Assembly (NCBI GenBank): GCA_018304165.1
Contig: JAGVWS010000033.1
Span: forward strand, 60 to 64,059
Length of the DNA stretch: 64,000 bases
Source of the DNA: Candidatus Pacearchaeota archaeon
Lineage (GTDB): Archaea; Nanobdellota; Nanobdellia; Pacearchaeales; GW2011-AR1
Direction: 5' to 3'
The notes below the pieces were generated by a model. It was not told where the DNA came from. It saw nothing but the letters and a program-made list of their open reading frames with translations, and ran no database searches. Made by a program: the position numbers and the translations under genes. This document shows, in pieces, positions 5,374 through 63,899 of the stretch; position 1 is the stretch's first letter, and each line of letters starts with the position of its first letter.

Positions 5374-5670
5374 ATGGGTTGTTCTCTTACTACCATGCGC
5401 AAACTCACCAGTTTATACCTTATTCTGTCGCTTATAGGTATCTTAGCATTGCTTTTTATAAACAATTTTAACGCTCAGGAAATCAAAAGTATAATTATTA
5501 ATTATTCAATATCATCCATTTCAGTTATCAATTCTTCAAACAGCACTGTAATCATCTACTGCGATTCCTGCAACTTTGAGCCTTCTATAATTAATAATAA
5601 TGTCTCGGCGATTATAAGGGAATTTGACGGCTCTCTCTTTTTGGAGAAGCTGGAGGTGTTAGATGATTGA
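5374..5670 (+). CDS. Small secreted/membrane-anchored protein of unknown function
   Basis: N-terminal signal/TM segment (LTSLYLILSLIGILALLFI); Asn/Ser/Ile-rich. Confidence 0.25.
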   Translation: MGCSLTTMRKLTSLYLILSLIGILALLFINNFNAQEIKSIIINYSISSISVINSSNSTVIIYCDSCNFEPSIINNNVSAIIREFDGSLFLEKLEVLDD

Positions 5671-5766
5671 GCTATTACTGGCTTTAGTTATAGGCATTAT
5701 ACTGGAGATATCAGATGATTGGGCTATTACTGGCTTTAGTTATAGGCATTATACTGGAGGTATTGG

Positions 5767-11545: not shown

Positions 11546-13222
11546 TCAGGCCTGGCTGAAATCAAGCACCCTCATCTTTCTTGTTTTCATATTAAACACA
11601 GGCACTTTGCAGGGGTCCGGATGATTTCCCATTTTCTCTTCAAAGGGCGTTATTGACTGCCAGCATGAAGAGGCTATCATCAAAATATTATTATAAACAT
11701 CAATATCCAATTTATGCAAATCCCCCGTAGCAACTATGTCTGGAACTGTATCAATAAACATAGGATCCCTGTCATGATGAGGGATATATGGGTTGAATGA
11801 ATGCGTTGGGGAAAGGTGCCTTCTTTTAAGAAGGTACTTTATAACTTTCGTCGGCGAATCATGAGCCCTTCCCAGCCTCAATTCATCAATTTCATTGATT
11901 ATATTATGAAAGCTCGCCCCATGATACATTAAAACTCTGAATCCTCTCTTCTCTTTGCTCCTGCCGATTCCTATTTCTACCAGAGAAGGATTGCTCACCA
12001 GTATTAAATTACTTAAGTCATATAATGCCGCCCCATAATCCCTCCCCACAGGGGGCTGCGGCTCTGCTACTCTTACCGCATCGTGCTGTCCCGGGCAGAG
12101 AATGATAGTTATATCCTTTCTTATCATCTTTAAGTATTTTGCAAGCTCTTTGTACTGCTCTTCAATATCCGGCAGCTCCAGAAGCTTTTCCTGGGCAGGA
12201 TAAACTCCCACCCCGTCAATTGTATCCCCAACTATAAACAGATATTTGACCTTCAGGGCCTCTTTTTTCTCCTCTTCCTCCCCCAGCCCTCCATTAATCC
12301 AATTTATAAATCTCAAAAGATTGTCTTTCAGAAACATCTTGCTTCCTACATGAATATCTGATATGAATGCCGCCGATTCATCTTCATCAATCTTTAATTT
12401 GTCTTCTATGAGTGAATCTGGATAAAATATATCATTAACGAAAACAAAATCCTTGTCTCCCATTCCCCTAATTCCGATAACATCATCAAGGAGGATCTCT
12501 TTAGCCAAGTTGTATAACTCCTCCTTGTTCCTGTTGACCAGCACGCTTATTTTTCCGGTGTTGTCCTCCATTTCTAAAATCATGTTCTTGTTCTTCGTTA
12601 TTCTCTTGTCATAAACCAGCCCGATAATAGAAAGTTCCTGTCTCTTAAGCCCTATTTTATTTATGGAAGTAAGGTTATTTAGTCCCTGCCTCTGCTGGAG
12701 TATGCCTTTTATTCCGTTGAATCTCGTACGAAAGTATTTTACAAAATCATCAACTTCTACCTTCTTCGCCAGCCCGCCATACACTGCCAAAACTCTTACT
12801 CTATTCAAGCTCTGCGTGTCAGATAATAACTTATCTCCCGGCGCTTCCAAGCCGGATGGTTGTTTAATTTCCCCTACACCCGCCGCCTCATCTATCTGAT
12901 TGATAATCATTTCTTTCGCCGGGCTTTCTTCGAGAATACCAATTTCCTTTCGTTCTTTAGACAATTCAATATTTATTCCCAAACTTATCCATATCTTTTC
13001 AACTGTTGTTTTTCCAACAACCATCCCAAAAGCATTCTGCAGCTGCTGGGAATTCTTCAAAAGGCTCGATTTGGTTATAACTTTCTGATTCATCCCTTCG
13101 CTAAAAGATTCTATTATCTTTTTAACGGCTTCTAAATTCCCTATTTTTTCAAGAACCTGGCATACTTCAGAATCCACCAAAACTCCTTTCTCAAGACAAA
13201 ATTTTAATATTCTTTGATCCAT
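11546..13222 (-). CDS. polB: DNA polymerase II (PolD) small subunit DP1 (calcineurin-like phosphoesterase)
   Basis: MPP-fold motifs (FLFIVGDTIDG, CPGQHD, MYHGASFH, GDLH) with N-terminal OB-like region. Immediately upstream of DP2. Confidence 0.85.
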   Translation of the reverse strand: MDQRILKFCLEKGVLVDSEVCQVLEKIGNLEAVKKIIESFSEGMNQKVITKSSLLKNSQQLQNAFGMVVGKTTVEKIWISLGINIELSKERKEIGILEESPAKEMIINQIDEAAGVGEIKQPSGLEAPGDKLLSDTQSLNRVRVLAVYGGLAKKVEVDDFVKYFRTRFNGIKGILQQRQGLNNLTSINKIGLKRQELSIIGLVYDKRITKNKNMILEMEDNTGKISVLVNRNKEELYNLAKEILLDDVIGIRGMGDKDFVFVNDIFYPDSLIEDKLKIDEDESAAFISDIHVGSKMFLKDNLLRFINWINGGLGEEEEKKEALKVKYLFIVGDTIDGVGVYPAQEKLLELPDIEEQYKELAKYLKMIRKDITIILCPGQHDAVRVAEPQPPVGRDYGAALYDLSNLILVSNPSLVEIGIGRSKEKRGFRVLMYHGASFHNIINEIDELRLGRAHDSPTKVIKYLLKRRHLSPTHSFNPYIPHHDRDPMFIDTVPDIVATGDLHKLDIDVYNNILMIASSCWQSITPFEEKMGNHPDPCKVPVFNMKTRKMRVLDFSQA

Positions 13223-13261
13223 TTTTCAAATGAGTTTAATTTGTTAAACATTTTGTTATTA

Positions 13262-13400
13262 TTTGTCAAAACTATAGCTGGGAACTTTAATAGCTGAACT
13301 GTTAATCATTGACTACATACTCTGGATACCTCAATAGCTGAACTGTTAATCATTGACTACATACTCTGGATACTTTAATAGCTGAACCGTTAATCATTGA
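13262..13400. repeat. 45-bp tandem repeat x about 2.7 (aatagctgaactgttaatcattgactacatactctggatac) between cdc6 and DP1
   Basis: Direct repeats seen in sequence at 13280, 13325 and 13371. Confidence 0.7.
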
Positions 13401-13509
13401 CTATTAAGTAAAGGACATGCTATTTTGGTTAATTATTTATGTCTTTCACTATATCTCAATAATTTGAATGTACCTTGCCCGTCTGAACTTTTGAATATTA
13501 AATAAAAAA

Positions 13510-14982
13510 TCAAAAGTTCAGGCTGTCTGTTATTATTTCTCTCGCTCTTGGTATTATTTGCTCTGGAATGAGAAGCTTAATCTCCCTGGTTCTTCCATAC
13601 CTTCCCTTGCTTATTACTCTTGCATTTATCAATCCAAGCATGTCAAATTCGGCTATCAGATCTCCCACCCTTCTCTGAGTAAGTATTTCGTTCCTGCTCT
13701 TCCTGCACAGTTCCTGATATAAATTGTATATGTCTCCTGTAAAAATTTTCTGGTTTTTTTGGTTCTGGGCCCGTCTTTTATTATTCATCAACTCCAGTGC
13801 AGCAAGAAGAACTATCTGAAACTGCTTAGGAGCAGAGGAGATTATATCTAATATTTTATCCTTGTCTATTTTCTCATTGGCTATATCAATATGCTTTACA
13901 TCTATTCCACTCTCTCCGGCTCTCTCTGCAATTTCTCCTGCCACTCTTAGCAAGTCTAGAGCTCTTCTTGCATCTCCATGCTCTCTCGCAGCGTACGCTG
14001 CACATTTAGCTATAACTCCCTCTCCCAAAACCCCCTGTTTAAAAGAAACATCTGCTCTTTTCTTTAGAATATCCTGCAACTGCAGGGCATTGTACGGCGG
14101 AAAAATAATTTCTTCTTCAGACAAACTGCTCCTCACTCTTGGATCAATCAAGTCCAGAAATTTTAGATCATTGCTTATCCCTACTATGCTTAATGTTGTT
14201 TTATCTAGCTCAGAATTCATTCTCGTCAGATTATATAAGAAATCACTGGATATTTTCTTGACTGCCTGGTCTATTTCATCCAATATCAGGATGAATGTTT
14301 GTTTTTCTGATTCAATAAGGTCTATAAATTTATTATAAACCTGGTCTGTTGGAAGCCCGGTAGCAGGCACTTCTCCCCCCATCTTTTTAATAAGTTCTGC
14401 AAGAATTCTATATTCCGTATCTGCAACTTTTTTCAGTTTGCAGTTTAAGTATTCTATTTTAAGGGGAATTTCTAATTTTTTAGCCTTGTTTAAAAGTTGC
14501 TCCTTCATATACTTAATGCATATAGTCTTACCGCTTCCCGTCTGCCCGTAAACAAATAAGTTGCTTGTCCTCTCCCCCCTCAAAGCAGGTGCAAGAATGC
14601 TTGCAACCTGCTCAAGCTGCTCATCTCTGTGAATTATTTCATCAGGATGATACTTTGTCTGCAAGTGGCTCTTATCTTGAAATATACTTTCCTTAGCAAA
14701 AGAATCAAAAATCCGGTCTATTTTGCTCTTCATTCCCTGATTATTAATATTATCAGAATTATTTTTTATCCCATGATTAATTAGGTTATTAGAACTATTT
14801 TCCATCTCCCAATTAGTTAGATTATTAACATTACTTTTTATTTCCTGATTAAGTATATTATTAACATTACTTTTTATCTCTGCATTATTAATTTCTCTAT
14901 TATTAATATTATTAACACCCCTCTTTACTTCCTGATTATTAATTACGCTATTATCAATATTATAAATATTATCAACACTCAT
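13510..14982 (-). CDS. cdc6: Orc1/Cdc6 replication initiator (AAA+ plus winged helix), with a repetitive Asn/Ile-rich N-terminal extension
   Basis: Walker A GQTGSGKT, Walker B ILDEID, sensor motifs, C-terminal wH. Canonical Cdc6 N-terminus begins near M84 (IFQDKSHLQTKYHPDEIIHRDEQL). Residues 1-83 are about 12-aa periodic repeats encoded by 36-bp DNA repeats. Confidence 0.9.
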   Translation of the reverse strand: MSVDNIYNIDNSVINNQEVKRGVNNINNREINNAEIKSNVNNILNQEIKSNVNNLTNWEMENSSNNLINHGIKNNSDNINNQGMKSKIDRIFDSFAKESIFQDKSHLQTKYHPDEIIHRDEQLEQVASILAPALRGERTSNLFVYGQTGSGKTICIKYMKEQLLNKAKKLEIPLKIEYLNCKLKKVADTEYRILAELIKKMGGEVPATGLPTDQVYNKFIDLIESEKQTFILILDEIDQAVKKISSDFLYNLTRMNSELDKTTLSIVGISNDLKFLDLIDPRVRSSLSEEEIIFPPYNALQLQDILKKRADVSFKQGVLGEGVIAKCAAYAAREHGDARRALDLLRVAGEIAERAGESGIDVKHIDIANEKIDKDKILDIISSAPKQFQIVLLAALELMNNKRRAQNQKNQKIFTGDIYNLYQELCRKSRNEILTQRRVGDLIAEFDMLGLINARVISKGRYGRTREIKLLIPEQIIPRAREIITDSLNF

Positions 14983-19909: not shown

Positions 19910-20044
19910 TCCTCTTGCGAAAGTTGTTTTTTGTTTTTGATTAAAACTTTTGACGCAGAAAAAGATGTGTAGGAAAAGATACGTAGAAAGGGCTTGAGCT
20001 TCATATGATGCAATGATAGCTTTTACAACAGCAAAACAACTATA

Positions 20045-20142
20045 TTAATTGAGATACATTAATTGAGATACATTAATTGAGATACATTAATTGAGATACA
20101 TTAATTGAGATACATTAATTGAGATACATTAATTGAGATACA
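20045..20142. repeat. 14-bp tandem repeat x7 (ttaattgagataca)
   Basis: Perfect tandem copies seen directly, immediately upstream of the small membrane protein gene at 20174. Confidence 0.8.
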
Positions 20143-20173
20143 AGTAGAGGAAGTAATTGAGAGGAAATAAATA

Positions 20174-21127: not shown

Positions 21128-22000
21128 TTGCTGTCACTACTCATGCCTTTAGAGATTATTCTGCCAAGTTTCTATGAAAGCTCAAGGAATTCTAAAGATA
21201 TTATAATCTCAATTCTTACCAGGAACCACCCATTAAGTATAAAGAAAGTTTACAACAAAATGAGGTCCGGCCACAAATATGGAGGTACGTTTCAGTCAGT
21301 TTTCAAGAGCATTAAAGAGCTTCAGTTACAGAATATCCTAATGCGGGCAGGAAAAGAGTATTCCCTCAATCCAAACTGGATTGAAAAAATAAGAAGCTTT
21401 GCTAATGAACTGCATAGAGGTTACTTTGAGCCGATAAACAAAGAGGAAGCAGATATCAGCGAGATGTCTCTTAAGAAGGAAGTCCACAAATTTGAATTCA
21501 ACAACCTCTCTAATCTATATTTTTTTGTTAAGAATATAGAGAAGAGTTACATAGACAATTCGCAGGGAAAAAAGAGATGTCTGTGGATAATGTCTCATTA
21601 TTGGCCTACTTTTCTATTTCCTCATGAAGAGCATGACAGGGGCATATTCCTCAGCTCAAAGAAAGTCAATTATTATATCACTCACAAGTCCGAAAATGCA
21701 TTGGACAAATGGGCGCTGAAGATTTTTTCCGGAAAGGGAGTTAATATTCTCTGTAAAGCAGGCATTTCAGAGCGTTCTGATGTAGGTGTATATGGAGATT
21801 GGGTGGTTGAAGTTTACTATTCGGAATCTTTTAAGAATATTCATAAATATTTCAGGGAAGTTTCAAATATTTCAGAGATAGATTTAAGCAGTTTTATCGG
21901 AGATCTAAAAAAAGATTACAAGATTGTAGTAGTCATGCACAAAGATAAATTTGTAGCAGATCAAATCTGGGATTCCATATATAAAAAAATATTAGCTTAA
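21128..22000 (+). CDS. Hypothetical protein with possible N-terminal wHTH
   Basis: N-terminal region (IISILTRNHPLSIKKVYNKMRSG) resembles a wH fold. The 3' end of the gene is tandemly duplicated at 21961-22075. Confidence 0.3.
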   Translation: MLSLLMPLEIILPSFYESSRNSKDIIISILTRNHPLSIKKVYNKMRSGHKYGGTFQSVFKSIKELQLQNILMRAGKEYSLNPNWIEKIRSFANELHRGYFEPINKEEADISEMSLKKEVHKFEFNNLSNLYFFVKNIEKSYIDNSQGKKRCLWIMSHYWPTFLFPHEEHDRGIFLSSKKVNYYITHKSENALDKWALKIFSGKGVNILCKAGISERSDVGVYGDWVVEVYYSESFKNIHKYFREVSNISEIDLSSFIGDLKKDYKIVVVMHKDKFVADQIWDSIYKKILA

Positions 22001-22232
22001 AACATAAATGGTATTCCATATATAAAAAAATATTAGCTTAAAACATAAATGGTATTCCATATATAAAAAAAAATTTATCATGGTAATTCAACTTTTTAGT
22101 TTACTGAATTAAACATTATAGTTTAATGAGTTAAATAAATCTCTTTAATTTCCATTAAACCTCATCTTTATTACTTATTTTGTCCACTTAGACTCAGCAA
22201 AAAACGGATGTTTATTAAAAGGGTGATGATTT

Positions 22233-24101
22233 ATGGGGATAAATTTTTTCAAAAAACCATGGTTTATAATCTTGGCTGTAGTTGTTTTGGTAATTCTCTT
22301 CTTAGTCATTGCATATGCAAGCGGCTCTAAAGTGGTTAATGAGCCTGAGATTCAATGGGTATCTCATACAGAGTACTGGAGCGGAGGCGATGCTTCTACT
22401 ATAGTGAGGCTGGTAGATTATAAGGGAAGGCCGATTGAGGGTGCTGCATGTACAGCAAGCATATTCAGGCCCGATGGAAGTATTTTTGTAAGCGGGCAGC
22501 CCATGCAGGCTTCTGCAATTGCGGGCAATTTTGAGAGAAAGGACTCGCTGGGAGGGCAGCCCGTCGGAACATACCAGCAGGAAGTAACATGTGTCTATGG
22601 AGGAAATACTATCAGGACTTCGGAGTCGTTCCATGTAAATCCCGCTCTTGAGAATATCAGAGAAGCAACGACTAATTTGTCTTTGTTAAGAAATGAGTTG
22701 AGCAACGTTAATATTTCAGTAAGCGCTCTTGTAACTTCCACAGGAGAGAGCATCAATCTCAAAATAGATTCAACGAGAACAAACCTCACTGAATTGATGA
22801 GGGCTGTTGAAAGCAGCATAATCAGCGATATAGGCAGCACTAAAGCCAATCTAACAACGCAGTTGAGCAGTATTAATGTCTCTTTAAGCGGAAACATTGC
22901 AGATACCCGTGCAGCTGTAACAACACAGCTCTCAAATGTTAATGCAAGCATAACTAACTTAATTACCAATACACTTCAGCCGGCGCTGGAAGCAAAGATA
23001 GAAGAGCAGATAGCAATTCTTACCACTCTTCTTAATAATGTTAATGCCTCAATAACTGCTACTGTAACTTCCACAGGAGAGAGCATCAATTTAAACATTG
23101 ACATGACAAGAACCACTCTCTCTGGCCTTCTTGACACTGCAGAATCCAATGTAATGAGCAACATTGACACGACGCGGGCGTCTTTAAGCACTCAATTAAG
23201 CAATGTCAACATCTCCTTGACAAGCAATCTGGCAAATACAGAAAACAGAATTTCCACACAGCTTTCAAATGTTAATGGGAGCATAAGTACTTTAATTACC
23301 AATACACTTCAGCCGGCTCTTGAAGCAAAGATAGAAGAGCAGATTGCATTGTTAATGGCTCAGATGAGCAACATTAATGCTTCCTTGACAGCAGTTGTGA
23401 CTTCTACAGGAGAGAATATTAATTTGAACGTTGACACGACAAGAACAAGCCTGACAAACACTCTGAACAGCGTCGAGACAAATGTTCTTAACAGCATTAC
23501 AAGCACACAGGCAAATCTTGGAACTCAGCTAAGCAATATTAATGTATCTTTGACAAACAATCTTGCCAGCACTCAAAACGTTCTTTCAACACAGCTCTCT
23601 GTGGTAAATACAAATATAAGCAGCTTAATTACAGACACTCTCAGGCCGGGGCTCGAGTCTTTAATGAACCAGCATTACAACAACTTAAGCACAGCGATAA
23701 CAAATGTTTATACAGATACACAATGGCTTGTTTCCAATTCTATGAATCAGCAGGATATGGCGGAGATATCAGGCAGGTTTGACAGCATTGACTCCAACCT
23801 TGCGGTGATAGAGGCATTTTGCGGAAATCCGGAAACCACAAACTCTGCTCTTTGTAATGAACTGGACACAATAAACGCCGCCATAGACACTCTTCAGTCT
23901 GAGCAAAACACAAGGCTTAGTGAGATAAATGCCACAGTCTCAAACACGTGGGAATTGCTGAGCGGAACAATCACAGACAACATAAACACCATCCTGGTAG
24001 ATTTGAACATTATAAAGTCAAGGACAGGAGAAATTAATACAACTGTTTACTCAATAAAAGAAACTGTAGAGAGCGCAGTAGATATAAGAGTGATATCTTA
24101 A
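22233..24101 (+). CDS. Membrane-anchored surface protein with three long internal repeats of about 115 aa (Ser/Thr/Asn-rich)
   Basis: N-terminal TM, then repeats LSNVN(I/A)S...TSTGESINL(K/N)ID.TRT.L...QLS.VN.S...LITNTLQPALEAKIEEQIA. Antisense ORFs 22302-23191 are repeat artefacts. Confidence 0.55.
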   Translation: MGINFFKKPWFIILAVVVLVILFLVIAYASGSKVVNEPEIQWVSHTEYWSGGDASTIVRLVDYKGRPIEGAACTASIFRPDGSIFVSGQPMQASAIAGNFERKDSLGGQPVGTYQQEVTCVYGGNTIRTSESFHVNPALENIREATTNLSLLRNELSNVNISVSALVTSTGESINLKIDSTRTNLTELMRAVESSIISDIGSTKANLTTQLSSINVSLSGNIADTRAAVTTQLSNVNASITNLITNTLQPALEAKIEEQIAILTTLLNNVNASITATVTSTGESINLNIDMTRTTLSGLLDTAESNVMSNIDTTRASLSTQLSNVNISLTSNLANTENRISTQLSNVNGSISTLITNTLQPALEAKIEEQIALLMAQMSNINASLTAVVTSTGENINLNVDTTRTSLTNTLNSVETNVLNSITSTQANLGTQLSNINVSLTNNLASTQNVLSTQLSVVNTNISSLITDTLRPGLESLMNQHYNNLSTAITNVYTDTQWLVSNSMNQQDMAEISGRFDSIDSNLAVIEAFCGNPETTNSALCNELDTINAAIDTLQSEQNTRLSEINATVSNTWELLSGTITDNINTILVDLNIIKSRTGEINTTVYSIKETVESAVDIRVIS

Positions 24102-24901: not shown

Positions 24902-25235
24902 GGACGTTATAATAATTATTCGCGTCGATAAGTTACTTTGAAACCAGAAGTGATTAACTGATAACATATAAAACAATAATTAGCGTCGATAAGTTACTTT
25001 GAAACCAAGGAATCAAGGATAATTAACTAATATTAATTGATAAACTGCAAAACATAAAACGCTGCTCTAATCTGAATGTATGATTCAACACTATTGATAA
25101 ATCTCTAATAAGCTAATATCTGAATGTATGATTCAACACTATTGATAAATCTCTAATAAACTAATTTATTATTATAAGAACTATTGCGATAGATATATTA
25201 AAAATTAGTGCGGAATTTACCTAATCACCTATAGT
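24902..25235. repeat. Mosaic repeat region homologous to 55480-55735
   Basis: Both carry ataagttacYttRaaacca...aattaactgataa x2, a 47-bp direct duplicate (25071/25120), and the module TTAGTGCGGAATTTASCTAATCAC. Confidence 0.55.
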
Positions 25236-27788: not shown

Positions 27789-28054
27789 AGTATCTCCGAT
27801 GGATTGCTATTACATATTAGAAATAAGAGATATAGAATCTATTAATTAATTTTGAAACACCAGCCATCTAGTTCTTAACGATGATAAATACTGGCAAGCC
27901 ATCTAGTTCTTAACGATGATAAATACTGGCAAGCCATCTAGTTCTTAACGATGATAAATACTGGCAAGCCATCATCCAAGTTATCCTAATCTGATTTACA
28001 ATATTAATTGAGCCCTGAATCTATTACTAAGCTATATTTGTATTGGAGATACTT
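27789..28054. mobile_element. MITE-like element carrying an internal 35-bp x3 tandem array, abutting the 3' end of tRNA-Ala
   Basis: Ends AAGTATCTCCGATGG (27789) and GTATTGGAGATACTT (28040) match the family TIR. 35-bp unit ccatctagttcttaacgatgataaatactggcaag x3 at 27864-27968. Confidence 0.55.
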
Positions 28055-29900: not shown

Positions 29901-30905
29901 ATGATTATATCTATACGCATGATATTGAAAAGGTTGGGAGCTTCCCTGGCCGCGCTTTGCGCGGGCTCCATTGGAGTGGGATGCGTTAGTGATGTAAATG
30001 CAATTACAAGAGAGATTGAGAGCTATGAGCGGACTAAGATAATTCTTGAGGAATTAATTGAGCACTTTGAGAGGCAGAGAGATCAGAGAGATAATACATA
30101 CTCAAATAAAGATGATTCATATCACTATGCATCTTCTGAACAGTTATCAGAGCAGCTTTCAGAACATGAGAATTCTGCACCCGTTATAGAGCCGGACAGG
30201 AGCAGCCTTTTTTACAGAATAATTCCCGGCGTGAACGCTCTGCAAAGAAGCAATACAAACAATATGAACAGATTAAACAGCAGTGCAAGCAGTATCAACA
30301 ATGCAACAATGAGTATCAACAATGCAACAATGAGTATCAACAATGCAACAAGCAGTTTGCAAAACAGCATTTTATCTGGGCATAACAATATCAGGGCCCA
30401 AAATGCCGTTGATGCAACTCTTAACAGCCTTGATGATCCAAAAAGAGATTTTGACGAGGGAGATGCTAAGCGAGTAGCCCTGACTCTTCTTACCGGCCAG
30501 GACATAGGGGCTGTCGTTGAGTGGGGTTATTCTCAGGTAGATGAAGTCAGGAGAGTAAAGAAAGAATGGCTGGAAAAGCCTCTCGAAGAATATACTGGAG
30601 TTAAATGGGGCTTCTCATTTAGCGGAGGCATTTCCGGTGAGGTTGATGCAGGGATCAGGGCAAGAAAGAAACTTAATGTCTTTGGACTTTCCGGTGAATT
30701 ATCCCTTGAATTAAAAGAACAGTCCTGGAGCGATTTTGCTTACGGAAATTCTCAAGCTTCCGCTCTTACCTCTTCTTATGCATATAGATACAGAGAACCA
30801 GTTCTTAACTCTCCACTATGGCTCATGGCTCTTAGTGATGAAGATGAATCTCCCACTATTACTCTTGCTTACACCATAAAATTCCCTTCCGGAAAAAGGC
30901 GCTGA
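29901..30905 (+). CDS. Secreted/lipoprotein-like protein of unknown function
   Basis: Signal peptide with lipobox-like GVGC; SEQLSEQLSE and NNATMSINNATMSINNAT repeats. Confidence 0.35.
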   Translation: MIISIRMILKRLGASLAALCAGSIGVGCVSDVNAITREIESYERTKIILEELIEHFERQRDQRDNTYSNKDDSYHYASSEQLSEQLSEHENSAPVIEPDRSSLFYRIIPGVNALQRSNTNNMNRLNSSASSINNATMSINNATMSINNATSSLQNSILSGHNNIRAQNAVDATLNSLDDPKRDFDEGDAKRVALTLLTGQDIGAVVEWGYSQVDEVRRVKKEWLEKPLEEYTGVKWGFSFSGGISGEVDAGIRARKKLNVFGLSGELSLELKEQSWSDFAYGNSQASALTSSYAYRYREPVLNSPLWLMALSDEDESPTITLAYTIKFPSGKRR

Positions 30906-31172
30906 TTTCTGATACAATCCCAATTTAGCAGGAAGATTTAAAGAATCAACCAATAATGTAAATCCTCTTAATAAGCACGAACAGGCATGAGCAAGCCTTT
31001 GTTAGCCTTTGTTAGCAATTACCATCGATTGAACTCGTTGATAAAGGTCATACCTAATTAATAATGGAATTATTTCTGATAGTTATATCATTCTTATGCT
31101 ACTAAAATAATTACCCATTGGAGATGCTGGCTCTTAACCAACACTTATAAAGAAGTATGCACAATCCATTGG

Positions 31173-43479: not shown

Positions 43480-43584
43480 AGATTTGATTTTTTGAGCCAC
43501 GAAAATTGAAAATTTTTGATGTTTAAGAAGAGTTAAAAAATCCTTATCTGATAAGCTCCATAATCAACCTAATATGTGTAATCC

Positions 43585-43752
43585 GCTCAGATTATAATAA
43601 GTTGCATGATTTGTATTAGTGATAATTAATTCTGCAAAACGCTCAGATTATAATAAGTTGCATGATTTGTATTAGTGATAATTAATTCTGCAAAACGCTC
43701 AGATTATACTATGTTGTATGATTTGTATTAGTGATAATTAATTCTGCAAAAT
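43585..43752. repeat. 56-bp tandem repeat x3
   Basis: cgctcagattataataagttgcatgatttgtattagtgataattaattctgcaaaa repeated; third copy slightly diverged. Confidence 0.8.
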
Positions 43753-48336: not shown

Positions 48337-48763
48337 TAAGGGGATTAGTAAAATTTGATAGCCATGATAATTATTAAACAAATATGTTTTACGTTATAAT
48401 TGATTATTAAACTTTGATAGCCATGATAATTATTAAACAAATCTGCAATAATCATAAAATAATGGTGCAGTTCAGAATTTGGTGAGCAGTGTAAATTCAC
48501 ACTAAGTTTTGATATAACTATTATTAATAGCTTTTATGCTCACTATAAACAACTATCTTAATATTAATTAATATGTCGGACACTTGCATGCGGCTTATGT
48601 CTGTGTTTTACAGTTATCAGTTAATTATTCTTGGTTCTAACAGTCTATCCGCATAGGTTTAGTTATAGGCAACTTGTTAAGGGCAAAACAACCTAACCTA
48701 TGCCTATAATGACAGATTCTAAGGTAACTTATTGGTCTGTTATTGCTATAATCCCCCAGAACC

Positions 48764-55479: not shown

Positions 55480-55735
55480 ATTATTAAACTTGGTGATTGA
55501 TGCAATTTAGCACCAATAAGTTACCTTAAAACCAATAATAATTAACTGATAAGCACCAATAAGTTACCTTAAAACCAATAATAATTAACTGATAAGCTGT
55601 AAAACATTAACATAAGTTGCATGCAATTATCTGACATGTAGCTAATTAATGTTAAGAATGCCGTTTATAATGAGCATAAATGCTATTGATAATAGTTATA
55701 TCAAAACTTAGTGCGGAATTTAGCTAATCACTTAA
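55480..55735. repeat. Mosaic repeat region homologous to 24902-25235 (43-bp x2 tandem, module TTAGTGCGGAATTTAGCTAATCAC)
   Basis: Shared modules seen directly; also contains a relative of the 31-bp unit of 2699-2791. Confidence 0.55.
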
Positions 55736-56535
55736 ACTTTCTCAGCAACGCAAAAAACACTCAGGCCGAAGGGGGGCCTTACTATTGTCTCGCAGAGCTT
55801 GAAAACAGGCACTAAAGAGTTATAGAGCCCAAAAGTTCCCTTGGAGTAAATTCTCTTCTTCATCAGGACATTTATTACATACCATCCAAGAGCCCCTGGA
55901 AGATTGAAGTAATGCAGTCTTTTTATCTTAAAGCCGGCTTTCTTTATTCTTTGTGATATTTCTGATGTTGTATACCTCCTAAAATGCCCACCTTCATAGT
56001 CAAGAATTGAGTAGAGAAAGCCCATTGCAGGAACAATTATCAGGAATTTTCCACCCTTCTCTAAAATCCTGTAAGCATTGTCAAAGGCGGGCTGGTCATT
56101 CTTTATGTGCTCCAAGGTGTTCATTGTAATAATTGTATCAAACTTGTATTTTTTTATAGCATCTGCAGCTTTCTTATCCGTAGCATCCATGAGAATTGAT
56201 TTTACGTTGGGCTTGCCTTTAAACCGCTCATTGAATCTTCTTATATAATCCTCGGAATAATCGAGGCCCACAAGAAGTTCTTTGTCCAGGAAGAAGGCAG
56301 ATAAATTGCCATTGCCGCAGCCAAAGTCAAGAATTCTTTTGCCGGCATACTTCCTCATCAACCCTCCTATCCATTTGTAATAATTATCCATTGTTGACAG
56401 GATATCCATATTCTCAACTAAAGTTGAGTCAAACTTTGCTATTTTCTCGTATGCTTTAAGATTTGCTTCAGGCATGACACTCTTAGGTCTTAAGGATTTA
56501 AAAGCTTTTATGGCATAGAGTGATAAATTCTTCAC
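55732..56535 (-). CDS. Class I SAM-dependent methyltransferase
   Basis: Motif I ILDFGCGNGNLS. Confidence 0.7.
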   Translation of the reverse strand: MKNLSLYAIKAFKSLRPKSVMPEANLKAYEKIAKFDSTLVENMDILSTMDNYYKWIGGLMRKYAGKRILDFGCGNGNLSAFFLDKELLVGLDYSEDYIRRFNERFKGKPNVKSILMDATDKKAADAIKKYKFDTIITMNTLEHIKNDQPAFDNAYRILEKGGKFLIIVPAMGFLYSILDYEGGHFRRYTTSEISQRIKKAGFKIKRLHYFNLPGALGWYVINVLMKKRIYSKGTFGLYNSLVPVFKLCETIVRPPFGLSVFCVAEKV

Positions 56536-56645
56536 AGAAATCAGGGAAGATTAATGATTGCTGCGAATATCTTTCACAGAAATCAGGGAAGATTAATATT
56601 TGCTGCGAATATCTTTCACAGAAATCAGGGAAGATTGATGCATGC
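56533..56645. repeat. 42-bp tandem repeat x about 2.7
   Basis: tcacagaaatcagggaagattaatgattgctgcgaatatctt repeated. Confidence 0.8.
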
Positions 56646-56705
56646 TAATCAAATTTCTCTCCTTTCTTGGAAGAGTTTAAAAACATAAAATCCTACTAGT
56701 GAATT

Positions 56706-58280
56706 ATGCTGAAGAATGATGGTAAAAAACTAAGCACTTCTCTGAAATTTCTTGCAAAGAGTTCTCTTGTTGTCTTAATAGGACTCCTTTTATCAAAGCT
56801 CTTCAATTATATATACAGAATAGTTATAGCAAGATATTTTGGCGCAGAAGAATACGGCCTTTTTTCTCTGGCGGTCATACTTTTTATCCTGTTTATCGCA
56901 GCCTCTTCATTGGGCCTGTCTGACGGGGTTTTAAGGTTTATCTCTTTTTATAGAGGGAAGAAGCAGCTGGGAAAAATAAATTTCATTATCAAGTTTTCTC
57001 TTGCAACGACCCTTGTTTCAGGGATTTTGGCAGGCATTATCCTTTATTTAACTTCAGGGATGATTGCAGAGAAGATAGTTCATAATCAGGGCATTCTGAT
57101 ATACTTAAAAGTGTTCAGCTTTTTAATACCCGTCAGTGTTCTGTCAAATGTCCTGCTCTATATTCTCCGGGCACACGAGAAAGTAAAACTTTATTCGTTT
57201 TCGATGAATATTTTCCAGAACTTCACCAAAGTATTTTTCCTTGTTTTATTTGTTTTTATCGGCTTGAAATTTAATCCAATAATCGCCTCTTTTTTCCTGA
57301 GCGCGGTTCTTCTGCTGTTGCTTGCTTTTTTTCTCTGTAAGTATAAACTGCCGGGCGTTTTCATAAAGCGCTTTATTTCAAAAAAACAGAAAGGGCAGAT
57401 TTCCAGAGAGCTTTTTTCTTATTCATGGCCCTTCATCTTTGTAGGGGTTATCTCAAATATCTTCTATTGGACGGATTCTTTGGTTTTAGGATATTTTAAG
57501 TCGGCTTTTGATGTGGGGATATATAATGTTGCCATACCTCTGGCATCGCTTTTAGGAATAGCCCCGGAATTGTTTATGCAGCTCTTTTTTCCCATGATCA
57601 GTTTTGAATATTCAAGAAAGAACTTCCCGCTGATTAGGGAGATTAGCAAGCAGATTGGCAAGTGGATATTCATCATAAACCTTCCCCTGTTTTATCTGAC
57701 GGCTTTCTTTCCGGAGGTGCTCATTAATGTTCTTTTCGGCAGCGAATACCTGCCGGCAGTAAATGTCCTGAGGATGCTGTCTCTTGGGGCTCTTATTGGC
57801 ACCAGCTTTACTATCTCCAACAGCCTCCTGTCAATGGCAGGCAAGTCAAAGCTAATCCTGCTGAACTTCAGCATCATTGCGGTGTTTAACCTTGTTTTAA
57901 ACATTCTCTTAGCTCCGAAGTATGGCATGAACGGCACTGCTTTCTCAACACTCTTGTCGTTCTTTCTTCTTACATTGATAGTTACTATGCAGGCCAGAAA
58001 ATACACGGGCATACTCCCCTTTAGGCGAAAAATGTTCAGGATATTGATAGTATCTTTAATTCTGCTTGTTCCTGCACTGATTATTAAATCCTTCTTTGAT
58101 CTGAGTTTAATTGCTATTCTGGTTTCTTTCATAGTCTTTTTAATTGCTTATGCAGCTATGATTTACTTCTCAGGCTGCTTAGACAGCAATGACCTTGAAG
58201 TTTTAGGGGCTGTAAAGAGAAAACTGCGCGATTATAAGCCGTTGCATAAATCTTTAAATATATCAAATAACAGCTCTTGA
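56706..58280 (+). CDS. Polysaccharide biosynthesis protein / flippase (Wzx-like, MOP superfamily)
   Basis: About 14 TM helices and size typical of Wzx/MATE-like flippases, inside a glycan cluster. Confidence 0.65.
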   Translation: MLKNDGKKLSTSLKFLAKSSLVVLIGLLLSKLFNYIYRIVIARYFGAEEYGLFSLAVILFILFIAASSLGLSDGVLRFISFYRGKKQLGKINFIIKFSLATTLVSGILAGIILYLTSGMIAEKIVHNQGILIYLKVFSFLIPVSVLSNVLLYILRAHEKVKLYSFSMNIFQNFTKVFFLVLFVFIGLKFNPIIASFFLSAVLLLLLAFFLCKYKLPGVFIKRFISKKQKGQISRELFSYSWPFIFVGVISNIFYWTDSLVLGYFKSAFDVGIYNVAIPLASLLGIAPELFMQLFFPMISFEYSRKNFPLIREISKQIGKWIFIINLPLFYLTAFFPEVLINVLFGSEYLPAVNVLRMLSLGALIGTSFTISNSLLSMAGKSKLILLNFSIIAVFNLVLNILLAPKYGMNGTAFSTLLSFFLLTLIVTMQARKYTGILPFRRKMFRILIVSLILLVPALIIKSFFDLSLIAILVSFIVFLIAYAAMIYFSGCLDSNDLEVLGAVKRKLRDYKPLHKSLNISNNSS

Positions 58281-58323
58281 ATAAGCCGCTGCATAAATCT
58301 TTAAATATATCAAATAACAGCTC

Positions 58324-59718
58324 TTGAGCATGGAAAAGAAAGTCTTTTTGTTCAGCCCAAATTCAGAAGATGATCTTGATCCTTCTCTCGTATCTTACTC
58401 TCTTGCATTGGGCTTCCTGGCCGCTTATGCGGAAAAAGCTGGCTGGATTCCGATAGTCAGGGACTGTTATTGCTCAAACTGGGAGAATACAAAAAGCCAG
58501 ATTATTGATATTATTCGGAAGGAGAATCCTTCAGTTATAGGGATAAACTGCGTTACTATGAACCGCATGGCTGCTTATAAGTCAGTAGACCTCATTAAAA
58601 GAATAAAACCCGAAATAAAAGTCATTCTTGGAGGAGTTCATCCAACAATATACCCTCAACATTTCCTGATAAATCATAATGCTGATGTCATAGTTCTGCA
58701 TGAGGGAGAGGAAACTTTTGAAGAGCTTCTTAATCATTATTCTCAGGGTAAGCCAATAACAGATATTAAGGGAATTGCTTACAAAAACAAGAAAGGCGAA
58801 GTTGTAATTAATCCCCCGAGGGAACAGATTAAAGATATTAATCAGATACCTTTCATGAAGCATGATTCTTTCCTGAATCCAGACAGCACAAAAGCTTACT
58901 TTTTTACTTCCCGCGGCTGTCCCAGCAATTGCAACTTCTGCTCTGCTTCAGTGCATTGGGGGAGGAGGTGGAGGTTCAGAACTCCAAAAAATGTTGTTGA
59001 CGAAATTGAGTTCGTTATCAAAAAATTTCCCAAGATTAATGAAATAAGATTCATGGATGATACATTTACTCTGGATAATAAAAGGGTTATTGAGATATGC
59101 AAGGAGATGATTAATAGAAATATTAATGTAAGGTGGAGATGCTCAGGGAGAGTCCACCCGGTTTCTGTTGAAATGATTCAGTGGATGGAGAAAGCAGGGT
59201 GCATCATGATTAGCTTTGGCGTGGAGACGGGGTCTGTAAGGCTTCTTGGAGAGATGGGCAAGAATCAGACCGTTGAGCAGATTTTTAATGCATTCAAGAT
59301 AGTTTATGAGAATTCTAATATTACTCCGGAGATGTTCATCATTCTTGGCCTTCCAAATGAGAATAAGGGAACTGTTGATGAAACTATTGCTCTCATCAAG
59401 AGGGTTATTAAAGTATCTAAAAAGCCCCTGATTTTGACTGCCGCAAGAATTCTTGAGATCTACCCCGGCACCAGGATTTATAGCCTGACCAAATCAAGAG
59501 GATTAATTGATGATTCTTACTGGCTTACTAATCCCAAGACCCCCCAGTTTTTGGAGCAGACTCCTAAATGGCTTAAGCATCAAAGGAATAGAATATTATT
59601 TGTCAACTGGACTTATGCCGGCTTGCTTCCTGTAGTGCAATTATTCTTTGAAAAGAAGATGTGGAAGCCAAGGAAGATTTACAATATAATCCGCCCCTAC
59701 CTCAAGGGGCTTAATTAG
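58324..59718 (+). CDS. B12-binding domain radical SAM enzyme
   Basis: N-terminal cobalamin-binding-like domain and CPSNCNFC (CxxxCxxC) radical SAM motif. Confidence 0.8.
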   Translation: MSMEKKVFLFSPNSEDDLDPSLVSYSLALGFLAAYAEKAGWIPIVRDCYCSNWENTKSQIIDIIRKENPSVIGINCVTMNRMAAYKSVDLIKRIKPEIKVILGGVHPTIYPQHFLINHNADVIVLHEGEETFEELLNHYSQGKPITDIKGIAYKNKKGEVVINPPREQIKDINQIPFMKHDSFLNPDSTKAYFFTSRGCPSNCNFCSASVHWGRRWRFRTPKNVVDEIEFVIKKFPKINEIRFMDDTFTLDNKRVIEICKEMINRNINVRWRCSGRVHPVSVEMIQWMEKAGCIMISFGVETGSVRLLGEMGKNQTVEQIFNAFKIVYENSNITPEMFIILGLPNENKGTVDETIALIKRVIKVSKKPLILTAARILEIYPGTRIYSLTKSRGLIDDSYWLTNPKTPQFLEQTPKWLKHQRNRILFVNWTYAGLLPVVQLFFEKKMWKPRKIYNIIRPYLKGLN

Positions 59719-60558: not shown

Positions 60559-60776
60559 GAGTATCTCCGATGGATAGTTATTATAATAGCATAAGAATGA
60601 TATAGCCATTAGAGGCAATTCTATTATTAATCAGATACTATGTTTATAGTCAGTTTAATCGAGGGTAATTGCTAACAAATGCTAACCAAAGCTTAGTCAT
60701 GCCTATTAAGCGAATTTACATTATTAATTGATTCTTTAAATCTTCTTGCTAAATTGTGGCTGTATCAGAGATACGC
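60559..60776. mobile_element. MITE-like element (218 bp) with GAGTATCTCCGAT-type TIRs, directly upstream of gmd
   Basis: Left CGAGTATCTCCGATGGATAG and right CTGTATCAGAGATACGC. Internal similarity to the 53.4 kb copy (cgRgggtWattgcta). Confidence 0.65.
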
Positions 60777-60819: not shown

Positions 60820-63273
60820 ATGCAAAAGAAAGTTGCATTTATTACAGGAATTGGCGGCCAGGACGGCTCTTATCTGGCAGAATTCCTGCTGGAAAAAGGG
60901 TATCTTGTCAGGGGAATTATCAGGAGGGCCAGCTATCCGAACACATCTCGTTTTGAACACCTGCTGAAGAAGTATGGTTTCGGCAGCGGGGATGAGAATA
61001 ATCCTTTCATTGTTAAATATGCTGATTTGACTGACCCTGCAAGCGTAAATGCTGTTCTTGATGAGTTCAAGCCAGACGAAATTTATAATATTGCTGCCCA
61101 GAGCCACGTGGGGATAAGCTTTGACAATCCTCATACTACTATCAGCATTAATACTCTCGGAGTGCTCAATATTCTTGAGTATCTGAGGAGGAATAAATCC
61201 CGCTGTAAGTTTTATCAGGCTTCATCTTCAGAGATGTTTGGAATTTCCCCGCCTCCCCAGAATGAGGAAACGCCAATGCTCCCCCAAAGCCCTTATGGCA
61301 TTGCTAAGCTTGCTTCTTATCATCTGACAAGACTTTACAGGAATGCTTACGGAATTTTTGCCTGCAACGGAATACTTTTCAATCACGAATGTGTGTCTGA
61401 AAATATTCCTATAATCGTCAGAAACAAAAGCACTCAAGTAATTTCTGTGAAGAGAATCAAAGACCTTAGAAGAGCCAGAGACAAAGGCAGCAATATTCAG
61501 CAGTGGGTTATTGGCGATGTAGAGATTTGGGATGGAGATAATTTTGTTGATTTATTGTTAGTCACTGCTACTAAGAGGAAGAAGGATGACGAATCTTTCT
61601 CCTGCAAGACCATGAATACAAGGCATGGAATTATTGAAGCTACTAATCACCATAACATGCTATTGAGTAACGAGCACAAGATAAAGTCTAAAGAAGTGAT
61701 GATTGGCGACGAGCTTCTTCACAGGGCATTTCCCGAATTCAGTGAGTTGTCCAGCGTGACTAATGAGGAAGCATTATTCCTGGGGATGATGGTTGGTGAT
61801 GGCTATATAAGCAAGGAAGGCGGGGGGCAGTTCACTAATAATAATCCAGAGGTTATGGGATTATTTGAGAAGATTTGGAAGAAAGTTGGCCTTGGAACTA
61901 TCACTAAGAGAGAATTCAAAACTGAATACGGTAGGGCTGCTCAGGCTAAGCTGAACAGCAATCATGGCTATCTTAGGCTTTTAAGAGAAGAGATTTATAC
62001 TTATGACGGTTTCAAGAAAATTCCTGATAGGATACTAAATGCAGGTAAGGAAGCCAAGAGGGCATTCTTATCAGGTTATAACCTTACTGACGGGCTTAAG
62101 TCTAATCCCTGCACTTATGAGTTCAAGAACTTCAAGACGAATTCTGTAATTTTAGCTCAGGGGTTATTATTAATAATGAATGAAGTGACCGGCCAGGACT
62201 ACAATATTACTTTTGAGTATGACGAAAAAAATTATGGTTACTATTCTATTAATCTGTTAAGCCCGATTGATAATTCTGCTAAAGAGATGCAGATTATTGA
62301 ACTCTTATCTTCCGGTATGAGCCAGAGAGAAATTTGCAGGCAGAGCGGCATTTCCCGGACATTTATTAGAAAGATTCAGAATGGCGGTCATGCTGAAACT
62401 GTTCATCATTTGGCCCTGGAGAAAAATGTTGTTAAAAAGATGTTTTATCATACTCAACAACCTGTGTGGGTTTATGACATTGAGACTAGTTCAGGAAAAT
62501 TCATGGCCGGAACCGGCAATATAGTCATTGCTAATTCTCCCCGCCGCGGCCACAACTTCGTCACTAAAAAAGTTACCAATCAACTGGCAAAGATTCTTGT
62601 TGGCGAGGATGATGAGCTTGTGCTTGGCAATCTTGATTCTAAGAGAGACTGGGGCTTTTCCAAGGAATATGTTCAGGTCATGTGGGCTATACTCCAGCAT
62701 TACGAGCCGGACGATTTTGTAATAGCTACTCAGGAGACTCACACTGTTGAAGAATTTGTTAAGGAGTGTTTTAGCCTTGTAGGGCTTGACTACAAAGATT
62801 TTTTGAAAACTAATCAGCGTTTCAGAAGGCCGGCAGAAGTTCCGGCATTGCTTGGCGACGCTACTAAGGCCAGAAAAGTTCTTGGCTGGACTCCAAAAGT
62901 TAAGTTCAAGGAGATTGTCAGAATGATGGTTATTGAAGACATTAAGAAAAAGCTCATCGAGAAGAACATAGTTCCAATAGAGTCGGGAGTGGAAAGAGAT
63001 GATGAGTTTTATCTTGAAAAGGCAAGGGAGCTCGCTAAGAGGATTGCTCATAACAAGTTTGGCGAGCTTGCCAAAAAGTTTATTGAAGTAGAGCAGAAGA
63101 TAAAGTCCGCAGTTCCGGAATTCTTGCAGAAAGAGTATCTCTTAAATAATGAGAACGGGGGTCATATAGAGAAGGCAAGGGAATTATCCAAGGTCTTTGT
63201 TGATAATACCTCCCTTTTTGATAGTTACTCTGCGGATAGGCTTAAGAAGTTGCCTAATCTTAGTGATAATTAA
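60820..63273 (+). CDS. gmd: GDP-mannose 4,6-dehydratase containing a 382-aa LAGLIDADG intein and an about 100-aa C-terminal extension
   Basis: GMD N-terminus (KVAFITGIGGQDGSYLAEFLLEKGY), catalytic region ...GILFNHE[intein]SPRRGHNFVTKK. Confidence 0.85.
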   Translation: MQKKVAFITGIGGQDGSYLAEFLLEKGYLVRGIIRRASYPNTSRFEHLLKKYGFGSGDENNPFIVKYADLTDPASVNAVLDEFKPDEIYNIAAQSHVGISFDNPHTTISINTLGVLNILEYLRRNKSRCKFYQASSSEMFGISPPPQNEETPMLPQSPYGIAKLASYHLTRLYRNAYGIFACNGILFNHECVSENIPIIVRNKSTQVISVKRIKDLRRARDKGSNIQQWVIGDVEIWDGDNFVDLLLVTATKRKKDDESFSCKTMNTRHGIIEATNHHNMLLSNEHKIKSKEVMIGDELLHRAFPEFSELSSVTNEEALFLGMMVGDGYISKEGGGQFTNNNPEVMGLFEKIWKKVGLGTITKREFKTEYGRAAQAKLNSNHGYLRLLREEIYTYDGFKKIPDRILNAGKEAKRAFLSGYNLTDGLKSNPCTYEFKNFKTNSVILAQGLLLIMNEVTGQDYNITFEYDEKNYGYYSINLLSPIDNSAKEMQIIELLSSGMSQREICRQSGISRTFIRKIQNGGHAETVHHLALEKNVVKKMFYHTQQPVWVYDIETSSGKFMAGTGNIVIANSPRRGHNFVTKKVTNQLAKILVGEDDELVLGNLDSKRDWGFSKEYVQVMWAILQHYEPDDFVIATQETHTVEEFVKECFSLVGLDYKDFLKTNQRFRRPAEVPALLGDATKARKVLGWTPKVKFKEIVRMMVIEDIKKKLIEKNIVPIESGVERDDEFYLEKARELAKRIAHNKFGELAKKFIEVEQKIKSAVPEFLQKEYLLNNENGGHIEKARELSKVFVDNTSLFDSYSADRLKKLPNLSDN
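61390..62535 (+). other. Intein with LAGLIDADG homing endonuclease domain (residues 191-572 of the GMD ORF)
   Basis: Inserted between LFNHE and SPRRG (contiguous in intein-free GMDs). Cys1, TxxH block (TNHH), LAGLIDADG-like LGMMVGDGY and LSGYNLTDG, block F/G VWVYDIETSSGKFMAGTGNIVIAN with Ser+1. Penultimate residue is Ala, not His. Confidence 0.75.
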
Positions 63274-63335: not shown

Positions 63336-63899
63336 ATGGTAACTTATAATACTAAGTCGTACTTTATCCATGAATCATGGCCTTCTGATGGCTTTGTTGA
63401 TATTGCACAGTTAAGAGCAGGATCTCTTGATGATGCCCAATTCTCCCTAGTTCATCGTAATGTGATAGTCCCTTGTCATGATGCTTTCATTGAGTATGAA
63501 CTTGAAGGTAAAACAGGGATATTGTTGAGTAGGAGGACTACTTTTCCTCTTAGAGGTTTTTGGTGGACTTTTGGTGGTAAGAGAACTCGTGGTTTGGATC
63601 CTGAAGAGTCTTTGAGAAGGAGAATCCGCACAGAATCTGGTCTTGAGCTTGAAAACCTCATTTATCTTGGGTGGGCCGATACCATCATGGATGCTGATCC
63701 GCTGGGCCATGACCACGGCACTCATACTACTGACCTTCAATACTTTGCTAAGGGTGTTGGAGAATTAAAGACTGATAGGACTCATTCTGAAGTAAGGGTT
63801 GTGACTCCTTATGAATATCTTGGGGGATTCAGAGGGACTCTTCATCCAAGGCTTACTGATTTCATGGACTTAATTCCCGGATATCAGCCTAGAGATTAA
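63336..63899 (+). CDS. Nudix-like hydrolase (possible GDP-mannose mannosyl hydrolase, by context next to gmd)
   Basis: Degenerate Nudix box GGKRTRGLDPEESLRRRIRTESGLE. Confidence 0.45.
   Translation: MVTYNTKSYFIHESWPSDGFVDIAQLRAGSLDDAQFSLVHRNVIVPCHDAFIEYELEGKTGILLSRRTTFPLRGFWWTFGGKRTRGLDPEESLRRRIRTESGLELENLIYLGWADTIMDADPLGHDHGTHTTDLQYFAKGVGELKTDRTHSEVRVVTPYEYLGGFRGTLHPRLTDFMDLIPGYQPRD

Follow-up and report, generated by a model that had tools for sequence, protein, structure and literature searches.

A probable class-1 LAGLIDADG intein in the GDP-mannose 4,6-dehydratase of a DPANN-type archaeon

What is a 382-residue segment doing inside a conserved active-site loop of a sugar-nucleotide enzyme? 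The question is raised by the gene for GDP-mannose 4,6-dehydratase (GMD) in a 64,000-nucleotide stretch of DNA (hereafter the window), taken from contig JAGVWS010000033.1 of GenBank assembly GCA_018304165.1 and assigned to a Candidatus Pacearchaeota archaeon. A first reading of the letters alone, here called the original prediction, had proposed that the segment is a LAGLIDADG intein in an uncommon host. We conclude with high confidence that residues 191–572 are best read as a class-1 intein with a two-motif LAGLIDADG endonuclease and an accessory helix-turn-helix (HTH), lodged in the GMD loop of a DPANN-type archaeon; the assessment draws on sequence and modelled structure, which together show where the insertion lies, its fold, its motifs and the conservation of catalytic residues across the family.

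The host gene leaves little ambiguity about where the insert begins and ends. GMD is encoded as a single long open reading frame (ORF) of 817 residues plus stop (60820–63273, forward strand), which Pfam GDP_Man_Dehyd (PF16363) matches at 8.4e-113 in two separate stretches, NCBIfam TIGR01472 (gmd) matches at 3e-117 with the intein left in (391.6 bits, against an equivalog cut-off of 415 bits) and GMD structures in the PDB match at 1e-85 to 5e-104, the latter value belonging to Arabidopsis MUR1 (1n7g). In the alignment with 1n7g, query residues 3–191 correspond to chain residues 28–217 and query residues 573–718 to chain residues 217–362; the two halves adjoin at chain position 216/217, so that all 382 residues enter cleanly at one peptide bond. 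The N-extein (residues 1–190; 60820–61389), which holds the Rossmann/NADP-binding and catalytic part, aligns with chain residues 28–216 and ends in GILFNHE. The GMD part of the C-extein (residues 573–718; 62536–62973) starts with the Ser+1 of SPRRG and covers positions 185–332 of PF16363. Between them the insert runs on the forward strand from Cys191 (nucleotide 61390) to Asn572 (nucleotides 62533–62535), with the junctions GILFNHE/CVSENIPIIV and GNIVIAN/SPRRGHNF, and the coding DNA of the fused extein junction reads CTGTTTAATCATGAA/AGTCCA. LFNHE and SPRRG are contiguous in solved GMDs, and NHESPRR is unbroken in 117 of the 120 nearest GMD homologues. Alignment with 1n7g and with these uninterrupted homologues thus places the insertion at a single point and bears out the proposed split between LFNHE and SPRRG (61390–62535) to the nucleotide.

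The host itself looks like an ordinary enzyme. Its GMD motifs are intact, with GxxGxxG, SSSE and YxxxK visible in the translation; the reading frame is kept throughout, and the nearest homologues of the spliced exteins are named GMD. The identical 817-residue protein occurs on 10 metagenome contigs from ENA and Logan data sets, which were assembled independently.

Within the insert, all the features listed in the original prediction are present in the translation: Cys1, a TxxH block (T85-N-H-H88), two LAGLIDADG-like motifs (FLGMMVGDG at 130–138 and FLSGYNLTDG at 226–235 in intein numbering, used from here on), an HTH-like segment and a terminal GNIVIAN followed by Ser+1. Relatives were gathered by a word-indexed search, which gave 39 proteins, and by running HMMER exhaustively against 1.8 billion cluster representatives, which gave 578 matches at E ≤ 1e-3, including 40 at E ≤ 1e-30. 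An AlphaFold model built on an alignment of 40 sequences is confident, with a mean predicted local distance difference test score (pLDDT) of 91.8 and a predicted template-modelling score (pTM) of 0.87. Searched against the PDB with Foldseek, the model returned endonuclease-bearing inteins as its top 13 matches, among them, each at probability 1.00, TliVMA (the best, 5.3e-19), PhoVMA, PI-TkoII (2cw7), PI-PfuI and PI-SceI; below these came the free LAGLIDADG enzymes I-SceI, I-DmoI and I-Tsp061I (E 2e-7 to 5e-6) and then WhiA.

A family profile restricted to the intein and built from 17 sequences led to the same proteins. It matched the TliVMA intein at 4.6e-16 over the endonuclease domain (query 98–293), PI-PkoII at 3.3e-13 from residue 116 through to the terminus (ending YAHN) with block F/G lying on block F/G, and the M. 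jannaschii TFIIB mini-intein (5o9i) at 2.3e-11 through Hint-N (2–120) and the F/G blocks. On these alignments and the modelled fold, the element would divide as follows, all on the forward strand. A Hint-N subdomain (residues 1–120; 61390–61749), placed by the profile match to 5o9i and by modelled beta strands, opens with block A (Cys1, CVSENIPIIV) and contains block B (61642–61653). The LAGLIDADG endonuclease domain (residues 121–292; 61750–62265) carries motif 1 (A128 to D137-G138; 61771–61803) and motif 2 (A225 to D234-G235; 62062–62094), and the order of secondary structure over residues 125–290 is that of the pseudo-dimeric alpha-beta-beta-alpha-beta-beta-alpha fold. After the three-helix HTH (residues 296–331; 62275–62382) comes Hint-C (residues 346–382; 62425–62535), whose blocks F and G (VWVYD363IETSSGKFMAGTGNIVIA381-N382) align with those of PI-PkoII and the TFIIB intein.

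The residues on which such an element would depend are kept across a diverged family. We aligned 53 inserts that have a GMD extein on either side, each representing a cluster at 50% identity, with the window intein to give 54 rows; members are only 25–61% identical. Position 1 is a nucleophile in 51 rows (33 Cys, 11 Ser and seven Thr), the remaining three being off by one residue through a register shift. Block B is retained (T85 in 52 of 54, H88 in all 54), as are D363 (52 of 54), G374 (54 of 54) and the terminal N382 (53 of 54) of blocks F and G. In LAGLIDADG motif 1, G132 is invariant, the catalytic position 137 is always acidic (46 Asp and eight Glu) and G138 is present in 53 rows; in motif 2, the catalytic D234 is found in 53 rows and G235 in all. 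K237 and the KTNS segment (249–252) are also conserved across the alignment. Inteins usually sit just before a Cys, Ser or Thr of the host; here Ser+1 is the one that the SPRRG loop itself supplies, and 49 of the 53 homologues also have Ser at this position. Retention of both acidic residues at such divergence speaks for past selection on the endonuclease and, taken with the intact motifs of the host, suggests that splicing is required and probably occurs.

The expected course of events follows that of a class-1 intein. Cys1 would undergo an N-to-S acyl shift, helped by T85, H88 and D363; Ser+1 would attack the thioester to give a branched intermediate; Asn382 would cyclise and release the intein; and an O-to-N shift would restore the LFNHE–SPRRG bond, yielding an active GMD of 435 residues. 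In gmd alleles that lack it, the released intein would then cut where the codons for LFNHE and SPRRG are joined, a site within the conserved substrate and cofactor loop of GMD, and it would be copied in by repair (homing), with the HTH lengthening the contact with DNA.

Several observations weigh against this reading, and we consider them with the alternatives on which they bear. The first concerns identity. A single-sequence Pfam scan of the insert gave no Hint or Intein_splicing match at E ≤ 1, and LAGLIDADG_3 reached 22.3 bits, just under its cut-off of 22.5; phmmer with the insert alone against the PDB found nothing significant (the best intein, PI-PkoII, had an E value of 0.53), and NCBIfam gave nothing beyond faint matches to models of DnaB and RNA polymerase A'' with inteins. 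The Pfam scores would suit a lineage-specific insertion domain of GMD, or an artefact of assembly or gene fusion. We do not take the weak single-sequence results as a refutation, since the searches by profile and by fold are decisive: the Hint and LAGLIDADG matches obtained there rule out a structural domain of the GMD family and sustain the identification as a LAGLIDADG intein, with the weakness of the single-sequence scores as its caveat. The canonical Cys1, TxxH and terminal Asn followed by Ser+1, the independent assembly of an identical protein and the dozens of homologous inserts at the same residue in other organisms also count against such a domain or artefact, and we regard either as extremely improbable.

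The second concerns the C-terminal splice junction. As the original prediction noted, the penultimate residue is Ala (Ala381) rather than His, and the block-F position at which many inteins have a His holds Gly369, Lys370 and Met372 here (around Phe371), so both usual helpers of Asn cyclisation are missing. C-terminal cleavage could on this evidence be slow or impaired, and the main uncertainty about mechanism lies in what assists the cyclisation of Asn. A decayed intein, one that has kept the Hint fold with splicing lost or crippled and that leaves this gmd copy an effective pseudogene or a source of cleavage products only, would account for both replacements, and for a base composition ameliorated in a way that suggests long residence. 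Yet the ORF is unbroken over 2451 nucleotides, all other catalytic residues are present and the catalytic motifs of the host are intact. The penultimate replacement is also no peculiarity of the window: across the 54 rows this position is His in 33, Ala in eight, Gly in seven and Ser in six, and 19 of the 20 homologues (of 53) with Ala, Gly or Ser have Cys1, a pairing conserved over independent clusters that points to a stable variant and not to decay. In the fast and efficient split inteins of DnaE, the last three residues are AAN or ASN. Splicing without the penultimate His has been documented (Chen, Benner & Perler, 2000, as cited in PMC4031507). The Ala is accordingly not disqualifying, and decay seems to us very unlikely beside a splicing-competent class-1 intein.

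The start of the element varies too. Seven of the 53 clusters at the GMD site (P0027, P0045, P0050, P0052, P0063, P0065 and P0066) begin with Thr, in the form NHE/T[MVI]xxF/NMP, and end in a canonical HN/S; there is no other conserved nucleophile nearby, and Thr1 therefore seems to be the nucleophile of the first step in these relatives. A 2014 review in the Journal of Biological Chemistry gives Cys1 and Ser1 as the only natural first-step nucleophiles, with Thr1 unlisted (PMC4031507), whereas a 2020 review writes of 'Ser1, Thr1 or Cys1' (PMC7765530); because the two disagree, we make no firm claim of novelty for the Thr1 relatives.

The third concerns mobility. The GC content at third codon positions (GC3) is 0.42 in the intein, 0.44–0.46 in the exteins and 0.34–0.45 in other genes of the window; the idea that the intein is compositionally foreign was dropped on this count, and the match with its surroundings gives no sign of recent arrival. 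Present-day homing is thus a supposition, and splicing, DNA cleavage and the role of the HTH are inferred. One might accordingly suppose an intein that splices and whose endonuclease no longer homes, being inactive or kept for DNA binding or regulation through its HTH, as in WhiA. The WhiA structures (8dy7, 3hyi) are indeed among the fold matches (E about 1e-5 to 2e-5), the HTH is conserved inside one subclade and the composition shows no mark of recent mobility. WhiA, like the window intein, places an HTH after a LAGLIDADG fold; it differs in being free-standing and without Hint, whereas the unit in the window is embedded in an intein and keeps both catalytic Asp. WhiA has lost the LAGLIDADG acidic residues and is catalytically dead. 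Set against the idea of an idle endonuclease, the catalytic Asp pair, the LAGLIDADG glycines, K237 and KTNS persist in 54 diverged members, as expected if the enzyme is active, and patchy presence among closely related GMDs fits continuing gain and loss. We judge loss of homing unlikely, though a good deal less so than decay of splicing.

The HTH nevertheless calls for an account of its own. The sequence MSQREICRQSGISRTFIRKIQNG (residues 310–332) gives weak matches to Pfam HTH_28 and HTH_7 (E 2e-4 to 4e-4), with HTH_23 also weakly matched, and the AlphaFold model (AF2) has helices at 296–307, 312–319 and 323–330, between the last endonuclease strand and block F. In the profile alignment this position is topologically that of the extra segment of PI-PkoII. 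Only 15 of the 54 family members have the HTH, and neither P0004, a fairly close relative, nor P0027 is among them; such limited presence marks it as an accessory module. On sequence and model, it is most simply read as a DNA-binding addition that would extend contact with the homing site; a regulatory role is conceivable, though nothing supports it. An NCBI fragment of one such gene, P0008, bears the name 'XRE family transcriptional regulator', evidently on account of the HTH.

How did the element come to be here? In a scan of GTDB at one genome per species, with a four-sequence alignment as query, we found 25 loci. The closest are in Nanoarchaeota and Woesearchaeota metagenome-assembled genomes (MAGs), at 64, 63 and 61% identity; the rest stand at 32–39%, apart from a Sungiibacteriota MAG with a partial match at 50%, and belong to Omnitrophota, Patescibacteria (Peribacteria, Saccharibacteria and Sungiibacteriota), Saprospiraceae and other Bacteroidota, Chloroflexota, Vulcanimicrobiota and one Cellvibrionaceae MAG. 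The window intein is one of a large family of predicted inteins at a single GMD site, comprising at least 53 clusters at 50% identity. Every one of the 39 proteins from the word-indexed search is a GMD or a GMD fragment.

Close relatives of the host mostly lack it. The 120 GMDs nearest to the spliced exteins are 51–73% identical to them, and those with named sources come from Pacearchaeota, Nanoarchaeota or Diapherotrites, names that indicate a DPANN organism as the host; the window is archaeal in its gene content, with PolD DP2, DP1 and Cdc6/Orc1 at 7–15 kb. Only two of these 120 carry the intein (P0246 and P0258, with exteins about 70% and inteins about 58% identical to those of the window). 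The nearest exteins, at 68–73% identity, are without it, and those of the other bearers are 41–57% identical. Such patchiness among close GMDs fits an element gained by homing and then lost, and the sporadic distribution is as would be expected of gain and loss of this kind; descent with frequent loss within the lineage is a possible alternative source of it.

Relatives of the window intein also occur in DNA polymerase B, in a family 4 (GT4) glycosyltransferase and in a subtilase (S8). The last two (P0112 and P0127) are related LAGLIDADG inteins, and hosts outside replication therefore recur among the relatives. Two GMDs, P0084 (1087 residues) and P0098 (1043 residues), have two inteins each; a second Intein_splicing match, which starts near residue 155, points to a further insertion site in the N-extein besides NHE/SPRRG.

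By its sequence and modelled fold, the element belongs to a known type, a class-1 intein with a monomeric LAGLIDADG endonuclease; among the features tested only the penultimate His is absent, and it is not a defining one. Its best fold and profile matches, TliVMA and PhoVMA (7qss, 7qsu, 7qst), PI-TkoII, which is PI-PkoII (2cw7), and PI-PfuI (1dq3), share with it the order Hint-N, LAGLIDADG domain, extra segment and Hint-C, and their blocks A, B, F and G can be aligned with it. Unlike archaeal inteins of V-ATPase, DNA polymerase or ribonucleotide reductase, it resides in GMD, and identity to them is only 12–16%; in contrast to the TliVMA, PI-TkoII and PI-PfuI group, it has a three-helix HTH before Hint-C and a penultimate Ala in place of His. 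PI-SceI, the yeast VMA1 intein (1vde, 1lws), is the prototype of an intein that doubles as a homing endonuclease; it too is a class-1 element running from Cys1 to Asn, with a fold match at 4e-10, but its host protein is eukaryotic and its last two residues are His-Asn. The extra DNA-recognition region of PI-SceI sits in the splicing domain and not in a C-terminal HTH.

Precedent in an archaeal nucleotide-sugar enzyme exists in the inteins of UDP-glucose/GDP-mannose dehydrogenase from Euryarchaeota, the only sugar-nucleotide host listed in the main account of Novikova et al. (2016; PMC4760082), which describes inteins as concentrated in replication and repair proteins. As described there, that host is a COG1004 dehydrogenase and not a 4,6-dehydratase of the short-chain dehydrogenase/reductase type, and the insertion site is a different one. 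We found no description of a GMD intein in a literature search that covered main texts, the supplements of Novikova et al. (2016) lying outside it. The proposal that GMD is an uncommon intein host consequently stands for the literature and fails for metagenomes, in which dozens of clusters share the same site. Public databases already hold many intein-bearing GMDs under the plain name GMD; this naming, like that of the 'XRE regulator', probably arises because single-sequence Pfam scans miss the Hint domain.

A broader reading can be put forward tentatively, with rather more doubt than belief: that an undescribed intein family, for which 'GMD-a' would serve as a name, is still homing and has spread across domains, and that one subclade has gained a target-extending HTH. 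The family takes in DPANN archaea, Omnitrophota, Patescibacteria, Bacteroidota and Chloroflexota, many of these known from MAGs, and some relatives would use Thr1.

Other features of the window bear on the setting of the gene. The exteins are followed by a C-terminal extension of about 100 residues, as first proposed: homology to GMD stops near residue 718, and the ORF runs on to 817. This extension (residues 719–817; 62974–63270, forward strand) has a repeated EKAREL(A/S)K motif, and no Pfam family was found in it. The motif DDxFY(L/I)EK(A/G)REL occurs, sometimes twice, in the intein-free DPANN GMDs P0188, P0219 and P0222, which rules out a tie to the intein and makes the extension an independent feature of the lineage. 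The surroundings of gmd are those of glycan biosynthesis: upstream lie genes for a PMT-type glycosyltransferase, a methyltransferase, a Wzx-like flippase and a B12-radical-SAM enzyme. Downstream, after 63 bp, is a NUDIX hydrolase gene (63336–63899, forward strand). In gmd-fcl-gmm clusters, a NUDIX GDP-mannose mannosyl hydrolase accompanies GMD, and the gmd-NUDIX order in the window recalls them; no fcl was seen between gmd and the end of the window.

The mini-intein proposed in DP2 is there: within the DP2 ORF (7032–11096, reverse strand), Intein_splicing scores 46.9 bits over residues 924–1101, alongside PolC_DP2 domains, and the element of about 180 residues spans roughly 7794–8327. DP1 and Cdc6/Orc1 adjoin at 11546–14982. 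To call the genome 'permissive for inteins', as the original prediction did, is to over-read two inteins.

A MITE (miniature inverted-repeat transposable element) had been placed 44 bp upstream of the gene. A 214-bp repeat does lie there, outside the intein, at 60561–60774, ending 45 bp before the ATG; it has imperfect terminal inverted repeats of 11 nucleotides and pairs with an inverted second copy at 30905–31128 (about 83% identical), both copies being intergenic. No target-site duplication is obvious at the repeat, so its status as a MITE is plausible and unproven, and a scan of it against Rfam gave no match. The window also has near-perfect tandem direct repeats of 35–59 nucleotides in two or three copies, mostly intergenic or at gene ends, at an unusually high density for 64 kb (5650–5805, 13278–13409, 21968–22090, 25070–25165, 27862–27973, 43577–43751, 48343–48445, 55509–55594, 56531–56656 and 58234–58327, the last linking the flippase stop to the start of the radical-SAM ORF). 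An array of seven 14-nucleotide units lies at 20027–20156, and three diverged direct repeats of 333 nucleotides (68–75% identity; 22704–23555) within the ORF at 22233–24101 point to a protein of 111-residue repeat units.

The GMD intein leaves the understanding of how inteins work unchanged. For annotation it matters in that domain scans miss it, and its genes are named plain GMD, score too low for the equivalog model or appear as separate fragments. It widens the list of hosts, placing a predicted endonuclease-bearing intein in an enzyme for cell-surface glycan precursors, recurrently in uncultured archaea and bacteria. For work on splicing chemistry, the family offers natural variants that open with Cys1, Ser1 or Thr1 and have His, Ala, Gly or Ser next to the last residue; if the Cys1 subgroup with a penultimate Ala, Gly or Ser splices efficiently without either His, it would represent natural variation in the Asn-cyclisation step.

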